A stretch of DNA of 64,000 nucleotides, from positions 29,966-93,965 of the forward strand of contig JACKFY010000003.1 in NCBI GenBank assembly GCA_020632235.1, given 5' to 3'. Below the pieces are notes generated by a model. It ran no database searches. It saw only the letters and a list, made by a program, of their open reading frames with translations, and was not told the DNA's origin. This document shows positions 4,118-43,541 of the stretch, piece after piece (the stretch's first letter is position 1; every line of letters begins with the position of its first letter). The stretch comes from Pseudomonadales bacterium. GTDB taxonomy: Bacteria > Patescibacteriota > Microgenomatia > UBA1400 > PJMF01. Both the position numbers and the translations under genes were made by a program.

Positions 4118-6163
4118 TTACTTTCCAAACACCTCTATCAAAAATGAAATATGCTCGCTGGGCTCTGTGTCAATTAAAGCAAACCCTCGCGCAACGTCAT
4201 CTCTGTTCACGCCTCCAGCAAACGAGACGTCTTTGAGTTTTTTTGTGACGGATGAGGCTTTCATGCCAGCAAAGCCCTGGGGTCGCATCAGCGAGTAGGC
4301 ATGCAGAAACCCAGACAGCTCGTCACAGGCAAACAGGTACCGCTCGATGCGTGTCTCTGGCTGTTTGCCCGTTCTGTCTGGTGCGTGGGCAGCAATAGCG
4401 TCTTTGAGTACTTGGGGGTATTCAGACAACCACTCTGTTAGCGCTTTGTTGGGGTGTTCGTCGGGAAACTCTTCCCAGTCGAGGTCATGCAAGAGTCCTG
4501 CCTGGTACCACAACTCGCTATCTTCACCGAGTGTACGCGCGTAGGCCTCCATGGCCTGGGCTACCATCTGGGCATGATGGCGCAGTTTTTCGTTTTGGAT
4601 GTGCTTGGTGAGCAGCTCTTCTGCGGCTGCCCTACTTGGCAAGTCGGCTTTTTTTGCTGGTTTGCTCGTTTCTTTGGTTTGTGATCGCACAAATTGTTGC
4701 TGGTTTTCTACCTGCCATGGGAGGGGGCGGAGGGTGGGGAAGGCGATCACCTCGCGAATACTCCAGGTGTTAGTCAAAAGCATCACCAGTCTATCGATAC
4801 CCATGCCCATGCCGCCCAGTGGCGGCATGCCGTACTCCATGACCTCCAAGAAGTCTTCATCAATAGGGTGCGCCTCATCGTCACCCGAGCGCATGCGTTG
4901 CTGCTCGCCGTCAAAAATAGCGCGCTGATCAATAGGGTCGGTGATCTCACTCCAGCCATCGGAGATCTCTTTGCCCCCTACGTAGAGCTCGTAGCGCTCA
5001 GCTAGATCTGGTTGTAATCTGTGTTTTTTTGCCAGTGGACTGACGTCTCTGGGGTAGTCAATCACCCAGGTCGGCTCAATTAAGGTGGGTGCGACCAGAG
5101 TATCAAACAAAGCAAATAAAGCTTTGCCTTTGGTAAAATCACCGATCAGTTCTTCTTGGTGTTTTTTCAATAGCGCTTGCACGCTCTCGTCATCGAGCTG
5201 ATCCCACGTGACGCCAAGGTGTGTCTCAACTAGCTGGGTCATCGTGGCGCGTGGCCAACTTCCTTCAAGAGAGACAGTTGTCTCCCCCACCTGTAGTTCT
5301 AGTGTGCCGTTTACTGTCTGTGCTAGGTGCTTGATGAGCCCCTCCAGTGTTTCGATTATCGTATTGTAGTCAGCGTAGGCGTGATACCACTCCATCATGG
5401 TAAACTCTGGCTGATGGGTTTGGTCTACCCCTTCATTGCGAAAGTTGCGGGCTATCTCAAATATTTTTTCGTACCCACCTACAATAAGTCGTTTCAGGTA
5501 GAGCTCTGGGGCTAAACGCAGGAAAAAATCGCTATCGAGCGCGTTCATGTGAGTGATGAACGGTTTGGCGTTCGTGCCCCCGTAGACAGGGTGAAAGACG
5601 GGTGTTTCAACCTCGGTAAAGCAATGCACGTCCTGTAGGTATCGCCTAATCTCTTTTTCAATCAGCCAACGAGCGTCTAGCACGCGTTTTGTTTCCGGGT
5701 TAATGAGCATGTCAACAGCGCGGTTGCGAAAGCGCGCCTCTTTGTCTTCGGCTGCGTTCCACTCGGTGGGTAGAGGGCGCAGGGCTTTGCCCAAAAAGAG
5801 AACCTCTTGAGCAAAAATAGTGATCTCGCCTGTTTTGGTAGCATCAACTGTTCCCTTGACGCCTATAAAGTCTCCTCTGTCTACCAGGTTTTTGAGCCAC
5901 GAAAACGCCTCGGGCATATCATCTTTTCGCACCATCACCTGGATGTCGCCTGTCATGTCTGCGAGGTCAAGAAAGATAACCTTGCCATGCGCTCTGATAG
6001 ACATCACCCGACCAGCGGTTTGTACTTCCTGGTCTTTTTTTGCTATGCACCCGGCTACAGTGTGTGTTTTATTGAATGCATAGGGGTGTGGATTGATCCC
6101 CAGCTCTTCGAGCTGAGAGCGTTTTTCTGTTTTGGCTTGTATGGCTTCGTCTATTCTGGACAT
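4118..6163 (-). CDS. lysS: Lysyl-tRNA synthetase with a C-terminal HD-domain phosphohydrolase extension of about 175 aa
   Basis: A full class II LysRS (OB-fold N-terminus, FRNEGVDQTHQPEFTMMEWY, GGMGMGIDRLVMLLTNTWSIREVIAFP), then a linker, then an HD domain (LRHHAQMVAQAMEAYARTLGEDSELWYQAGLLHDLDWE...). Confidence 0.9.
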   Translation of the reverse strand: MSRIDEAIQAKTEKRSQLEELGINPHPYAFNKTHTVAGCIAKKDQEVQTAGRVMSIRAHGKVIFLDLADMTGDIQVMVRKDDMPEAFSWLKNLVDRGDFIGVKGTVDATKTGEITIFAQEVLFLGKALRPLPTEWNAAEDKEARFRNRAVDMLINPETKRVLDARWLIEKEIRRYLQDVHCFTEVETPVFHPVYGGTNAKPFITHMNALDSDFFLRLAPELYLKRLIVGGYEKIFEIARNFRNEGVDQTHQPEFTMMEWYHAYADYNTIIETLEGLIKHLAQTVNGTLELQVGETTVSLEGSWPRATMTQLVETHLGVTWDQLDDESVQALLKKHQEELIGDFTKGKALFALFDTLVAPTLIEPTWVIDYPRDVSPLAKKHRLQPDLAERYELYVGGKEISDGWSEITDPIDQRAIFDGEQQRMRSGDDEAHPIDEDFLEVMEYGMPPLGGMGMGIDRLVMLLTNTWSIREVIAFPTLRPLPWQVENQQQFVRSQTKETSKPAKKADLPSRAAAEELLTKHIQNEKLRHHAQMVAQAMEAYARTLGEDSELWYQAGLLHDLDWEEFPDEHPNKALTEWLSEYPQVLKDAIAAHAPDRTGKQPETRIERYLFACDELSGFLHAYSLMRPQGFAGMKASSVTKKLKDVSFAGGVNRDDVARGFALIDTEPSEHISFLIEVFGK

Positions 6164-6250: not shown

Positions 6251-6724
6251 TTAATTTATGGTTGTAATCTCAAGCTTTTTTTCCCCGCCAGGGGTGTTCA
6301 CCAGTATGGTATCACCCTTCTTCTTTCCCAGCAGCGCCTTGCCCACTGGTGAAGTTGCAGAGATTTTGTCTCCTGTGCCGTCAGCCTCAAACTCACCCAC
6401 GATGTGCAGTGAGTGGGTTTTTCGTCCTTCTTTCACCTCTACGTGTGAGCCAATGGTGACTTTGTCTTTACTTTTGGATGAGCGGACCACCTTTGCGTTG
6501 GCGATCACCTCTTGAATTTCGTCAATTCTGGTCTGGATCAGTTGTTGATCTTCACGGGCCGAGTGATACTCGGAGTTTTCTGACAAATCACCAAACTCGC
6601 GCGCGCGTGCAACGCGCTCGACTACCTCTGGTAGTTTTATCTCTTCGAGCTCCTGGAGCTCTGTCTTGAGTTCTTCTAAGCCCTCTTTGGTTACCTCGAT
6701 TACTTTTGTGGTGTCGTCTGTCAT
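6251..6724 (-). CDS. greA: Transcription elongation factor GreA
   Basis: 157 aa with an N-terminal coiled coil and a C-terminal FKBP-like domain, including GDLSENSEYHSAREDQ. Sits 15 bp downstream of atpC on the same strand. Confidence 0.9.
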   Translation of the reverse strand: MTDDTTKVIEVTKEGLEELKTELQELEEIKLPEVVERVARAREFGDLSENSEYHSAREDQQLIQTRIDEIQEVIANAKVVRSSKSKDKVTIGSHVEVKEGRKTHSLHIVGEFEADGTGDKISATSPVGKALLGKKKGDTILVNTPGGEKKLEITTIN

Positions 6725-15641: not shown

Positions 15642-16280
15642 ATGGCTCAGCACATCGTTCCTTTTTACCCAAACACGCCAGATAACACCCATTGCTACCA
15701 AGCGGCACTGAAAATGGTGCTCAAGTTTTTTTGGCCAGAGGAAGCATACTCTTTGGATGAGCTGGACGAAGTAACTGCCAAGGTTGATGGGCTGTGGACG
15801 TGGCCGATTGCCGGACTACTGTGGCTACAAGAAAAACACGCCGAGGTGAGCATGATAGATGCATTTGATTTTCATGCATTTGTGAAAGACGGAGGGCAGT
15901 ACTTGCTTGATTTTTATGGAGATGAGGTGGGTAGCGCGCAAATTGCCCACAGCGATATAGAGCAAGAGATTAGTTTTGCCCAGCAGGCTTTAAAAACGCT
16001 TTCGATAGAAAAAAGGAGTGCTCGTATGGCAGATGTGAAGGCACTACTTGAGGATGGATTTCTGGTTATCTGTAACGTGAATGCTAATGCACCCAACAAC
16101 AAAGAGGGGTACACAGGGCACTTTGTCGTTATCACGGGGTTTGACGAGAATGGGTTGTATATGCATGATCCTGGATTACCACCACGGCGCAATCGACGGG
16201 TGAGCTATGAGCACTTTACCTCTGCTTGGGCGTATCCAGATGAAACAGCGAAGTGGTTGATTGCGGTGAGGAAAGTGTGA
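15642..16280 (+). CDS. Peptidase C39-like (papain-fold) domain protein
   Basis: Carries the Cys motif NTHCYQAALKMVL and the His motif YTGHFVVITGFDENGLYMHDPG, typical of C39/C39_2 peptidase domains. No ABC transporter partner nearby. Confidence 0.55.
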   Translation: MAQHIVPFYPNTPDNTHCYQAALKMVLKFFWPEEAYSLDELDEVTAKVDGLWTWPIAGLLWLQEKHAEVSMIDAFDFHAFVKDGGQYLLDFYGDEVGSAQIAHSDIEQEISFAQQALKTLSIEKRSARMADVKALLEDGFLVICNVNANAPNNKEGYTGHFVVITGFDENGLYMHDPGLPPRRNRRVSYEHFTSAWAYPDETAKWLIAVRKV

Positions 16281-16352
16281 GTCCGCTGGGACTATCCGCC
16301 GGTGGGTGGAAGGACACAGAGCTTAAAAAAGTCGGTCGGCTGACGGATCTAA
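16277..16352 (-). repeat. tRNA-Lys-derived partial copy (3' acceptor end, degraded T-region, variable and anticodon 3' half) fused to a hairpin-containing repeat
   Basis: gtgagtccgctgggact (16277-16293) and aggacacagagcttaaaa (16311-16328) are identical to tRNA-Lys segments. The T-loop is replaced by a 17-nt insert. It is followed by a 24-nt repeat unit (aagtcggtcggctgacggatctaa) that also encodes the GIY-YIG C-terminus DPSADRLF*. Confidence 0.6.
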
Positions 16353-16616
16353 CCGAACTAATAGTAACGACCAGAGAAATGACCTACCCCTACTTGACTT
16401 AAGCTGTTTTTCCCTATAAAGAGCAGTGCTTTTTTCTCCGCATAGCTCAATGTAGAGATACTCCCAAAAAGGCGGAAACCTATGAGTAAAGCTTGGTTTC
16501 TTTACCGGTAGTTGTTGATTGTGCTGGTCAAGTCGGTTATTAAGGTGTTGTGTTATGCCAATGTATATTTTGTGTGCAGTGGGATTGTAGATGCAGTACG
16601 TGTAGTATGGCGGTAT
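16323..16616 (-). CDS. GIY-YIG nuclease domain protein (YhbQ/UPF0213-like)
   Basis: PYYTYCIYNPTAHKIYIGITQHLNNRLDQHN is the GIY-YIG core, and ALYREKQLKS follows it. The track ORF (to 16649) uses a GTG inside the tRNA-Lys T-arm, which is probably spurious. The true start is unclear. Confidence 0.6.
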   Translation of the reverse strand: MPPYYTYCIYNPTAHKIYIGITQHLNNRLDQHNQQLPVKKPSFTHRFPPFWEYLYIELCGEKSTALYREKQLKSSRGRSFLWSLLLVRLDPSADRLF

Positions 16617-16693
16617 TGGTGAGTCCGCTGGGACTCGAACCCAGGACACAGAGCTTAAAAGGCTCCTGCTCTAACCAACTGAGCTACGGACCC
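16617..16693 (-). tRNA. tRNA-Lys (anticodon TTT), CCA encoded
   Basis: The reverse complement GGGTCCGTAGCTCAGTTGGTTAGAGCAGGAGCCTTTTAAGCTCTGTGTCCTGGGTTCGAGTCCCAGCGGACTCACCA folds as a canonical cloverleaf with a GTTCGAGTC T-loop and anticodon loop CTTTTAA. Confidence 0.85.
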
Positions 16694-16755
16694 TCACACA
16701 AGCACGTAGTATACCCCACTGATGAATGCTCCGCTACAGATAAAGAAAATCTAGA

Positions 16756-16794
16756 ACACAGAGCTTAAAAAGTCCGTCGGCTGACGGATCTAAT
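16756..16794 (-). repeat. Second copy of the tRNA-Lys-derived hairpin repeat, upstream of tRNA-Lys
   Basis: acacagagcttaaaaagtccgtcggctgacggatctaa matches 16314-16352 with two or three differences. It shares acacagagcttaaaa with the tRNA-Lys anticodon and variable region and contains a CCGTC-ggct-GACGG hairpin. Confidence 0.6.
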
Positions 16795-16951
16795 CTTTAC
16801 CCCGATACTTCTCGGGGAACCCCGCCCCGTCTGAAACCCAACCTCCAGTTGGGATGATGCGAACCCTCAAATCTGCGTGTGCTGTGATATGTCAGAGTGT
16901 TGTACGTATTCTGATTCGTTTGGAAATCTCCCTGCATGCTATCATGCCACT

Positions 16952-29486: not shown

Positions 29487-29494
29487 ATTTTTTG

Positions 29495-29566
29495 TGACCC
29501 CACGGGGAATCGAACCCCGCTTTTCAGGATGAAAACCTGATGTCCTAGCCGATAGACGATGGGGCC
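29495..29566 (-). tRNA. tRNA-Glu (anticodon TTC)
   Basis: The reverse complement GGCCCCATCGTCTATCGGCTAGGACATCAGGTTTTCATCCTGAAAAGCGGGGTTCGATTCCCCGTGGGGTCA gives a cloverleaf with anticodon loop TTTTCAT. CCA is not encoded. Confidence 0.85.
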
Positions 29567-29607: not shown

Positions 29608-29758
29608 CCTTTCAGGATGTCACCCTCAGGGTGATCACTCGCTAGAGCGAAAAACCTGATGTCCTTATCTCCCGCAGGGAGGCTAGCCGACAGACCCCGT
29701 TATTGCCTCAAATATTTAATCGAGAGCAAAACGGGACAGGCTTTGGGGCCATCTATCT
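29608..29758 (-). other. Partial tRNA-Glu duplicate (5' leader, acceptor 5' half, D-arm, anticodon arm; no T-arm) interrupted by three hairpin insertions
   Basis: The colinear blocks ggggccatctatct, ctagccgaCagac, aaaacctgatgtcct and tttcaggatg match the tRNA-Glu gene and its 5' flank. They are separated by inserts that each form hairpins: CCCGTT...AACGGG, CTCCC-gca-GGGAG and TCACCCT-c-AGGGTGA. Confidence 0.6.
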
Positions 29759-42639: not shown

Positions 42640-42870
42640 GAGTACCTTTCGTTTGATCACATCTACTAGTGGCGTCATAATAGCACACGAGGTTCTAGAC
42701 TGCTAGCATGAAGAGCCTCTGGTGTCTTGAGTGCGACCTTGTCCGTTGTGTTCTGTGGCATAGCGCAGTATAATCCGCTTACTAGCCAAAGCTTGGAAAA
42801 ACGGTTTGTGGATGAAGCACGGAGCTGTCTACTGCTGAAAAACAAGCAATACATAGAGTCCTGATACGCT

Positions 42871-42924
42871 GGGATAATCTAGTGGTTATCCCGACACTAG
42901 GTGTCGGGGCACGGAAGAGATCGC
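42871..42924 (+). repeat. tRNA-Asp-derived partial copy with hairpin insertion; upstream copy of a 44-bp direct repeat
   Basis: GGGATAA-tctagtgg-TTATCCC is D-arm-like. CCCGACAC-tag-GTGTCGGG replaces the anticodon 5' half. ACGGAAGAGATCGC matches the tRNA-Asp anticodon 3' half and variable loop. The 44-mer at 42881-42924 is identical to 43314-43357. Confidence 0.6.
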
Positions 42925-42950
42925 GTATAGTAACAATAAGTAGCAAATAT

Positions 42951-43026
42951 GGCCTCGTGGTGTAGTGGTTAACATGCTTCCCTGTCACGGAAGAGATCGC
43001 CGGTTCGAGTCCGGTCGAGGTCGCCA
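42951..43026 (+). tRNA. tRNA-Asp (anticodon GTC), CCA encoded
   Basis: GGCCTCGTGGTGTAGTGGTTAACATGCTTCCCTGTCACGGAAGAGATCGCCGGTTCGAGTCCGGTCGAGGTCGCCA gives a canonical cloverleaf. Confidence 0.85.
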
Positions 43027-43042
43027 AAAAGAAGAAATACGT

Positions 43043-43297
43043 ATGTCTTGGGTCTACATCTTGTGTAGCAAAAAAGATAACTCATATTATGTTGGTAGTA
43101 CCAATAATCTAGAACGGAGAATTGGGCAGCATAACAATGGTTTTTCTCGATACACCAGAGCAAAAATCCCTTGGAAGTTAGTGTATACAGAAACTCATGA
43201 TTCTCTAAAAGACGCTCGAATACGAGAGCAACAACTCAAAAACTGGAAAAGCAGAGTTGCTCTTGAGAGATTGATAGGTAAAAACAAACAGCTCTGA
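43043..43297 (+). CDS. GIY-YIG nuclease domain protein (YhbQ/UPF0213-like), second copy
   Basis: MSWVYILCSKKDNSYYVGSTNNLERRIGQHN...IREQQLKNW. The track ORF (from 42965) runs through tRNA-Asp. The ATG at 43043 lies 17 nt after the tRNA. Confidence 0.7.
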   Translation: MSWVYILCSKKDNSYYVGSTNNLERRIGQHNNGFSRYTRAKIPWKLVYTETHDSLKDARIREQQLKNWKSRVALERLIGKNKQL

Positions 43298-43299
43298 TA

Positions 43300-43382
43300 G
43301 GTCAGGACGGTGTAGTGGTTATCCCGACACTAGGTGTCGGGGCACGGAAGAGATCGCCGGTTCGAGTTCGGTCGAGGTAGCA
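43300..43382 (+). other. Full-length tRNA-Asp-like pseudo-tRNA with a broken acceptor stem and the anticodon arm replaced by an extended hairpin; downstream copy of the 44-bp repeat
   Basis: GGTCAGGACGGTGTAGTGGTTA-TCCCGACACTAGGTGTCGGGGC-ACGGAAGAGATCGCCGGTTCGAGTTCGGTCGAGGTAGCA. The D-loop, variable loop, T-arm and 3' acceptor are close to tRNA-Asp, but the 5' acceptor cannot pair and the 3' end reads GCA rather than CCA. Confidence 0.6.
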
Positions 43383-43541
43383 AAAAGATATTCTAGGATA
43401 TCTTATAACTTGTAAAATCAAGTGTTTCTAAAACTATAAGATGTCTTATAGTTTTACTACTAACTATAGGTCTTTTTTACGCACCAACTGTGTATTGTCA
43501 CATGTAGGTAGTTTGGTATAGTACGACTACGTTTCGTATCT

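Follow-up and report, generated by a model that had tools for sequence, protein, structure and literature searches.

The tRNA-Asp locus and its flanking look-alikes

A stretch of 64,000 nucleotides from contig JACKFY010000003.1 of the metagenome-assembled genome (MAG) GCA_020632235.1, referred to herein as the window, was analyzed with the focus on a tRNA-Asp gene that is followed by a small GIY-YIG nuclease gene and flanked on both sides by look-alikes of the same tRNA. All coordinates are positions in the window, and an L with a number is the label of a comparison locus or genome. A preliminary description had reported this layout together with a perfect 44-nt direct repeat and a hairpin inside the repeat, and all of these features were recovered where it had placed them. 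They are listed below.

42848..42870, + strand: degenerate remnant similar to the final ~20 nt of the GIY-YIG open reading frame (ORF); 5' part of the 77-nt repeat, preceding the upstream look-alike
42871..42924, + strand: upstream partial tRNA-Asp look-alike; 44-mer copy 1 at 42881-42924, hairpin at 42890-42908
42951..43026, + strand: intact tRNA-Asp(GTC), called by ARAGORN; Rfam score 63.9 bits
43043..43297, + strand: GIY-YIG nuclease gene, an ORF of 84 aa with an ATG start; Pfam PF01541, E=6.5e-20
43300..43382, + strand: downstream near-full-length tRNA-Asp look-alike, 83 nt; 44-mer copy 2 at 43314-43357, hairpin at 43323-43341, authentic-looking tRNA 3' half

The ORF begins 16 nt past the tRNA-Asp gene on the same strand, and the downstream look-alike starts 2 nt past the ORF stop. 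The perfect 44-nt direct repeat (42881-42924 / 43314-43357) is set within a 77-nt repeat (42848-42924 / 43281-43357) of 83% identity. The 33 nt on the 5' side of the 44-mer match at 20/33 positions (61%), and the 3' sides are unrelated. The 44-mers of both look-alikes contain the hairpin CCCGACAC-TAG-GTGTCGGG, which at this locus stands in for the 3' strand of the D-stem and the 5' strand of the anticodon stem; in most relatives the hairpin stands in for the whole anticodon arm. The hairpin sequence CCCGACACTAGGTGTCGGG occurs twice in the 64 kb, both times at the Asp locus, with 0 copies expected by chance. Because only these two copies exist, the hairpin was rejected as a dispersed repeat of the repetitive extragenic palindromic (REP) or miniature inverted-repeat transposable element (MITE) kind. 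The whole unit does not have the features of an insertion sequence or MITE either: its repeats are direct, long and tRNA-derived, its hairpin is confined to the Asp locus within the window, and no transposase was found.

The downstream look-alike copies positions 9-21 of the tRNA-Asp at 100% identity and positions 36-71 at 97%, and the upstream look-alike copies positions 36-50 at 100%. In the downstream copy the acceptor strands are unpaired, the 3' end is GCA, and the minimum-energy fold is not a cloverleaf. In a search of 651 nt (42800-43450) against the tRNA covariance model (RF00005), neither look-alike was matched even with the limit at E<=10; only the true tRNA was. ARAGORN calls neither look-alike. 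The lack of a model match, the broken acceptor stem and the missing cloverleaf support the earlier view that the flanking elements are pseudo-tRNAs which are not decodable. The converse candidate, an unusual functional tRNA, was rejected on the model search, the fold and the ARAGORN result.

Identity to tRNA-Asp resumes at tRNA position 36 in both look-alikes (window positions 43343 and 42910). Position 35/36 is also the reported site of group I introns in Patescibacteria tRNA-Asp (PMC13011429), and the agreement may be a coincidence. A group I intron in the window tRNA-Asp itself was rejected: the tRNA is continuous, and no Rfam intron was matched at the gathering score in the window or at E<=10 in 42800-43450.

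A TATAAT box lies at 42769-42774, about 175 nt upstream of tRNA-Asp and ahead of the upstream look-alike. In L016, a relative without the cassette, the matching TATAAT box lies about 25 nt upstream of tRNA-Asp. The original promoter, which now precedes the upstream look-alike, may therefore drive the whole Asp cassette. No promoter-like site was found between the tRNA-Asp and the GIY-YIG ORF.

The Asp nuclease is a bare catalytic domain of 84 aa, with no other Pfam domain besides an overlapping T5orf172 match. The residues that are invariant in the family (Y5, Y16, G18, R26, H30, and E62) are all present, and with these catalytic-motif residues the nuclease looks functional. The family profile matched 1zg2 (UPF0213, BH0048) at E=9e-17, 1ywl (EF2693) at 1.7e-14, SLX1 at 2.6e-7, and I-TevI at 3e-3. 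By profile similarity, the Asp nuclease is classified as a stand-alone catalytic domain of the Slx1/UPF0213 type, nearer to that branch than to I-TevI or UvrC; among characterised proteins, its nearest relatives are the structure-specific Slx1 nucleases. The NCBIfam and PHROG matches to homing endonucleases stay under the cut-offs and are confined to the initial ~35 residues. The literature describes the Slx1-like proteins of prokaryotes as minimal, probably ancestral, vertically inherited nucleases of the repair type, and some of their domains are fused to tRNA methyltransferases (PMC1564403). Homologues were found in 19 of 50,697 phage records, all at <60% identity. A phage origin was rejected on this rarity and on the lack of a nearby tRNA gene in the three phage homologues inspected.

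The possibility that the 44-mer duplication is an assembly artefact was considered, given that the source is a MAG. The same organism is also represented in an independent Logan assembly, found via an exact match to the LemA neighbour. This assembly reproduces the upstream flank, and its contig ends about 30 nt into the first 44-mer copy, as is expected of a de Bruijn assembly at a true repeat. The two copies of the 44-mer also differ in their flanks on both sides, and the layout with two look-alikes is found in independent assemblies of other organisms (L034, L038). An artefact is thus unlikely, to the point of being scarcely credible.

A lineage-specific insertion at the tRNA-Asp gene

Relatives were found among species-representative genomes by a DNA pattern over the D-loop and the anticodon 3' half of the window tRNA-Asp. 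Nearly identical tRNA-Asp genes were present in 14 species, all of them Patescibacteria MAGs, with a LemA identity to the window of 56-66%. The gene order HtpX-LemA-tRNA-Asp is kept in 13/14 species, and in two of them (L016, L021) the LysM gene and tRNA-Gly(CCC) follow downstream, as in the window. No GIY-YIG homologue was found at the tRNA-Asp locus in any of the 14 species, and a hairpin relic was found there in only one. The tRNA-Asp is a plain single gene in L016, L021, and L023. The absence of the nuclease gene from 14 nearly identical tRNA-Asp loci, with a hairpin relic at one, indicates that the cassette is a lineage-specific insertion. The comparison with tRNA-Asp loci of relatives lacking the gene, which the preliminary description had put forward, thus comprises 14 species, 13 of them with the same neighbours.

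Acceptor bases specific to the lineage are common to the window tRNA-Asp, the 3' half of the downstream look-alike, and L016 and L021. These shared bases indicate that the duplication was made in place from the host's own tRNA.

The source of the window and several of the comparison MAGs (L012-L018, L022, L023) are labelled "Pseudomonadales bacterium" in NCBI. By gene content, synteny partners and the names of their nr matches (Woesebacteria, Pacebacteria, Patescibacteria group), these MAGs are Patescibacteria.

A conserved non-coding segment of ~130-170 nt was observed downstream of the intact tRNA-Asp and its terminator in three of these MAGs (L017, 5700-5895; L018, ~960-1115; L012, ~6340-6490). 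The segment ends in a copy of tRNA-Asp positions ~57-76 and has no Rfam match. Possibly, it is a non-coding insertion of another kind at this tRNA.

Recurrence beside tRNA genes and the junction hairpin

The same order of elements was found a second time within the window, on the minus strand at a tRNA-Lys gene: a partial look-alike with a hairpin, the tRNA, a GIY-YIG ORF, and a fuller look-alike. The features of this locus, followed by a related element at tRNA-Glu, are as follows.

16751..16817, - strand: upstream partial tRNA-Lys look-alike; hairpin TCCGTCAGCCGACGGA at 16773-16788 and a second hairpin at 16800-16817, both present in the RNA fold
16617..16693, - strand: intact tRNA-Lys(TTT), called by ARAGORN and Rfam
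16323..16610, - strand: second GIY-YIG ORF, Pfam E=7.1e-14; 28% identical to the Asp nuclease
16276..16360, - strand: downstream fuller tRNA-Lys look-alike; hairpin at 16332-16347 with one mismatch, T-arm scrambled
29610..29750, - strand: tRNA-Glu look-alike covering positions 1 to ~43, just upstream of the intact tRNA-Glu (29494-29566)

The Lys-locus hairpin, TCCGTC-AGCC-GACGGA, differs from that of the Asp locus. Positions 34-51 and 59-75 of the tRNA-Lys are copied at 100% in the downstream look-alike. The two nucleases are distant paralogues (28% identity, E=6e-8), in agreement with the paralogy proposed earlier, and they are the only two GIY-YIG ORFs in the 64-kb window, each adjoining a tRNA gene. 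The Lys ORF has no ATG; its sole in-frame start is a GTG inside the tRNA-Lys, and its 3' end enters the look-alike. Because of these traits and the mismatch in the downstream hairpin, the Lys copy may be decaying. The tRNA-Glu look-alike is interrupted four times by small GC-rich hairpins and, like the real gene, is preceded by AGATAGAT. No GIY-YIG ORF was found beside it, so it may be the orphan relic of a lost cassette.

Outside the window, the first six distinct contexts of homologues, including one in a Flavobacterium MAG, all adjoin tRNA genes (for Glu, Lys, Asn, Met, Gln, and Trp). A metagenome scan with a narrow alignment of the nuclease family returned 80 loci, 69 of them non-redundant, and 42 of these had >=310 nt on both sides. 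A tRNA gene was present within 310 nt in 24 of the 42 adequately flanked loci. The near tRNAs at the metagenomic loci lie on the strand of the nuclease in 32/32 cases and represent 17 anticodons. The link between the nuclease family and tRNA genes is therefore family-wide and strand-specific.

The loci follow two layouts. Layout A opens with a duplicate of the tRNA 5' part, which often includes upstream flank, and continues with the hairpin, the ORF, and the intact tRNA. Layout B opens with the intact tRNA, often together with its terminator, and continues with the ORF, the hairpin, and a duplicate of the tRNA 3' part that often has this terminator too. Partial copies are present at most tRNA-adjacent loci, and one tRNA is spared. 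The 5' copies mostly end at tRNA positions 23-29 and the 3' copies mostly start at positions 44-46, which are the borders of the anticodon arm. The repeats reach into the host flank at L004, L031, L088, and L108, the inserts measure only ~300-450 bp, and tandem arrays of identical look-alikes are found at L025 (at least five copies with a 74-nt period), L062, and L034.

The closest tRNA-associated relatives of the Asp nuclease (L031, L034, L038, L052) all stand at tRNA-Asp genes of quite different sequence, in layout B and with a TCCCG...CGGGA hairpin. Two of them, L034 and L038, reproduce the window order of look-alike, tRNA-Asp, GIY-YIG gene, and fuller look-alike. The preliminary description had argued from the common order at two loci for a mechanism rather than chance. 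The argument is strengthened by the order at L034 and L038, by the cassette-free syntenic relatives, and by the recurrence of the architecture in dozens of unrelated metagenomic and genomic loci with at least 17 tRNA anticodons.

One cassette was also found in two contexts. The L077-type cassette recurs in L089 at ~93% identity behind another upstream context, with the shared segment beginning at the tRNA 3' end, which indicates that the cassette moves. The pair L108 and L109 was rejected as a similar case for the Lys-type homologue, being one locus that differs by unrelated insertions downstream of tRNA-Asn. L109 represents a variant form of the L108 genome; downstream of its tRNA-Asn, which bears the Lys-type cassette, the 3' end of this tRNA occurs two more times (963-980 and 1110-1128), which indicates further unrelated insertions at the same tRNA. 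L082 equals the L077 locus minus 51 nt (~1300-1420), by which the tRNA-Gln 3' end and an adjacent long hairpin were lost; this deletion suggests local instability beside the cassette.

The junction itself is marked by the hairpin. A perfect, GC-rich stem of 6-9 bp with a loop of 3-4 nt lies 0-2 nt from the breakpoint at 19/22 junctions (86%), compared with 5.6% of control windows. Relative to the ORF the place of the hairpin varies, upstream in layout A and downstream in layout B, and relative to the tRNA breakpoint it is constant. At other sites, hairpins occupy the D-loop (L002, L032) or the T-loop (L034, L052), or take the place of the T-arm (L020). Most loops have 3-4 nt, and 7-nt loops that mimic anticodon loops occur in a few relatives (L034, L038). 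An intrinsic terminator was rejected as an identity of the hairpin: it has no T-tail, was not picked by a terminator scan, and has no constant position relative to the ORF.

The nuclease clades track tRNA identity and hairpin type, so that the breakpoint hairpin co-varies with the nuclease. The sole homologue of the window Lys-type nuclease (49% identity) is at L108, beside a tRNA-Asn, and its hairpin TCCGTCAGCTGACGGA is one loop base apart from the window hairpin TCCGTCAGCCGACGGA. Between L002 (tRNA-Lys) and L032 (tRNA-Arg), the hairpin block is identical at 26/26 positions and about two-thirds of the aligned ORF columns are identical, while the host tRNA parts differ. The Asp clade, including the window, shares the pattern TCCCG...CGGG(A/G), in which the changes of the inner stem are compensatory. 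From the L108/window pair, the L002/L032 block, and the perfect 44-mer beside sequence of 61% identity, the hairpin is judged to belong to the cassette, to follow the nuclease lineage rather than the tRNA, and to be better conserved than the gene.

A mini look-alike was observed in L020 (Pacebacteria GW2011_GWA1_46_10; ~6080-6128, minus strand) directly after an intact tRNA-Asp. It consists of acggaagagat, TGTCCCGATATGATCGGGAT, and cgaggctcgcca, with the hairpin in place of the T-arm and no nuclease gene, and represents an orphan relic. Its 15-mer CCCGATATGATCGGG is identical to the cassette hairpins of L002 (tRNA-Lys) and L032 (tRNA-Arg).

Explanations and comparison with known systems

With modest confidence, we lean toward the explanation that the nuclease and its cognate hairpin make up a minimal mobile cassette, which copies itself next to or into tRNA genes, duplicating part of the target and leaving one tRNA intact. 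The nuclease gene would be transcribed from the tRNA promoter, and the nuclease would break the DNA in or beside the tRNA gene. It may recognize a structure or the conserved arms of tRNA, comparable to T4 SegB and its T-arm motif. Recombinational repair would then copy the cassette in, the repeats derived from the tRNA providing the homology. It may occasionally jump to another tRNA gene through the homology of the D- and T-arms, since the sequences of these arms are common to most tRNAs, with the non-conserved anticodon arm replaced by the hairpin. The hairpin could be the cis-site at which the nuclease binds or cleaves, or a cap that protects the duplicated copy from cleavage. The arrays of look-alikes, as well as the second, upstream look-alike of the window, could arise from recurrent breakage and unequal recombination, and the 44-mer may be kept identical by selection on the hairpin site or by gene conversion.

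A further proposal is tentative and, in our estimate, rather doubtful: that stand-alone Slx1-like GIY-YIG nucleases with cognate DNA hairpins constitute an unrecognised class of minimal bacterial mobile elements, which would use break-induced copying, with long duplications of the target, to spread from one tRNA gene to another and would leave behind an intact tRNA and a hairpin-capped dead copy.

Presence or absence at a conserved locus, one mark of a free-standing homing gene, was found at tRNA-Asp, where the gene is absent in the 14 relatives, all of them distant. Several points weigh against the mobile cassette. The next-best LemA in the protein collection is 68% identical, so that the exact borders of the insertion and a recent presence/absence polymorphism are not visible. 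The intact tRNA-Asp of the window has the same sequence as in the cassette-free relatives; a target wholly inside the tRNA would thus be cut in the host too, which leaves self-immunity unexplained. About 40% of the family loci with adequate flanks have no tRNA or look-alike nearby, and a tRNA on the opposite strand occurs in a single case (L005). Domain searches found no DNA-binding module in the Asp nuclease, unlike the characterised GIY-YIG homing endonucleases (I-TevI and the Seg proteins), and the three phage homologues inspected do not adjoin tRNA genes. The cleavage target and activity of the nuclease, and the role of the hairpin, are what we infer, and the origin of the long target duplications and of the upstream look-alike is a matter of conjecture.

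Other explanations were weighed on the same evidence. The gene could be a housekeeping gene for DNA repair or tRNA metabolism that shares operons with tRNAs, in which case the look-alikes would be decaying tandem duplicates and the hairpins generic palindromes or terminators. This would suit the fraction of loci lacking a tRNA or look-alike, the orphan look-alikes without a nuclease gene at the window tRNA-Glu and in L020, and the view of prokaryotic Slx1-like proteins as vertically inherited repair factors (PMC1564403). It is unlikely, however, when set against the absence of the gene from the tRNA-Asp locus of 14 relatives and against the two distant paralogues in one 64-kb window, each beside a tRNA gene. 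Generic palindromes or terminators also do not agree with hairpins that lack T-tails, sit exactly at the breakpoints far above the background (86% vs 5.6%), and co-vary with the nuclease clade across different tRNAs, nor does a housekeeping gene agree with the same cassette in different contexts. Alternatively, the hairpin look-alikes may be transcribed and work with the nuclease as RNA partners, either as a tRNA-mimic decoy or antitoxin in an addiction module like a type III toxin-antitoxin, or as a regulator of expression. The antitoxin RNAs of type III systems form repeat arrays next to the toxin gene, and tandem arrays of identical look-alikes exist at L025, L062, and L034, with none in the window. 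Look-alikes, tRNA and ORF all point the same way, and no promoter-like site separates the tRNA from the ORF, so the look-alikes could be co-transcribed; the stem changes are compensatory, the hairpin tracks the protein lineage, and the fusions of Slx1-like domains to tRNA methyltransferases hint at a link to RNA (PMC1564403). Against an RNA partner, the hairpin position is fixed to the tRNA breakpoint and not to the ORF, most look-alikes are fragments unable to fold like a tRNA, and the duplications into the host flank and the same cassette in new contexts are left without an explanation. We also know of no GIY-YIG enzyme that acts on RNA, and a role as RNA partner is considered distinctly unlikely.

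The remnant of an integrase-type island or prophage in a tRNA gene, with the GIY-YIG gene as left-over cargo, is very improbable. Islands inserted by integrases leave a direct repeat of part of the tRNA, and the layout with the tRNA upstream is indeed flanked by direct repeats of the tRNA 3' part, from position 44/45, at L004, L040, and L047. No integrase was found at the window loci or at dozens of related loci, where the ORFs are the GIY-YIG gene and host genes, and the inserts are merely ~300-450 bp. Moreover, half of the loci duplicate the tRNA 5' part and the upstream flank, unlike att sites, and a conserved junction hairpin is not a feature of an att site.

The mobile cassette resembles several known systems in part. 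The tRNA gene cluster of phage T4 holds SegB, a homing endonuclease of the free-standing GIY-YIG kind with a conserved T-arm motif of tRNA genes in its site (PMC2330249); SegB was also reported to drive local, tandem amplification of segments (PMC13096335). Both systems place a free GIY-YIG gene among tRNA genes, and SegB spreads with its neighbouring tRNA genes by break repair. However, SegB is a phage enzyme, longer and site-specific. The cassette protein is an 84-aa catalytic domain of the Slx1/UPF0213 branch, and the cassette resides on the chromosomes of Patescibacteria and other bacteria. No dead tRNA copies or conserved junction hairpin have been reported for SegB.

The UPF0213 proteins (YhbQ of E. 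coli, YazA of B. subtilis; structures 1zg2 of BH0048 and 1ywl of EF2693) and eukaryotic SLX1 share with the cassette nuclease the domain family, the minimal size and the catalytic motifs. The structure-specific action of the SLX1 nuclease is in keeping with a role of the cassette nuclease at the hairpin. To our knowledge, the bacterial UPF0213 proteins have no established function, and a link of UPF0213/Slx1-like proteins to tRNA-gene duplicates or hairpins was not found in the searched literature.

The tRNA islands and prophages of tyrosine integrases likewise use a tRNA target, keep the tRNA intact through a replacement copy, and are flanked by a direct repeat of part of the tRNA. The cassette differs in having no integrase, a size of ~0.3-0.45 kb, duplications of the 5' part too, and a junction at which a hairpin takes the place of a tRNA arm. 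Fractured genes, in which the gene of a homing endonuclease stands free between the two halves (PMC2677866), and the homing endonucleases of introns and inteins are similar in that a nuclease gene stands in or next to an essential gene whose function is kept. In the cassette, by contrast, host function is kept by duplicating a part, not by splicing or a split intein. Similarly, REP elements and bacterial interspersed mosaic elements (BIME) with their REP-associated tyrosine transposases (RAYT), and IS200/IS605 elements with their sub-terminal hairpins, combine a small protein gene with cognate GC-rich hairpins that co-vary with the protein lineage. Their HUH/Y1 transposases catalyse strand transfer, which a hydrolytic GIY-YIG nuclease does not, and those systems lack tRNA-derived repeats. 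The cassette hairpins are not dispersed over the genome. The group I introns at position 35/36 of tRNA-Asp and tRNA-Asn in Patescibacteria (PMC13011429) share the phylum and the tRNA; the window tRNA-Asp is uninterrupted, with nothing that needs splicing.

No description of a GIY-YIG gene with hairpin-substituted tRNA look-alikes was found in the open-access literature, and a prior account elsewhere is possible. Beyond the preliminary description, the analysis adds that the hairpin is part of the cassette and goes along with the lineage of the nuclease, and that in most relatives it stands in for the whole anticodon arm. If the explanation by a mobile cassette is true, a selfish nuclease gene would have a new way to survive in a tiny and densely packed genome: it would occupy an essential tRNA gene and duplicate a portion of it, in place of sheltering in a self-splicing intron or an intein. 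If the class of mobile elements is real, it would give a first biological role to at least part of UPF0213 (YhbQ/YazA-like proteins). The widespread stand-alone bacterial GIY-YIG proteins of the Slx1/UPF0213 type are here linked to a concrete pair of nuclease and short hairpin that can be tested, and small nucleases specific for a sequence or structure, with defined cognate sites, are potential tools.

The look-alikes also bear on genome annotation, as copies miscalled as tRNAs can inflate or distort the tRNA inventories of uncultured bacteria. Hairpin-substituted look-alikes were called by ARAGORN as "tRNA-Val(tac)" in L027 (1433-1506) and as "tRNA-Leu(caa)" in L062 (1845-1917).

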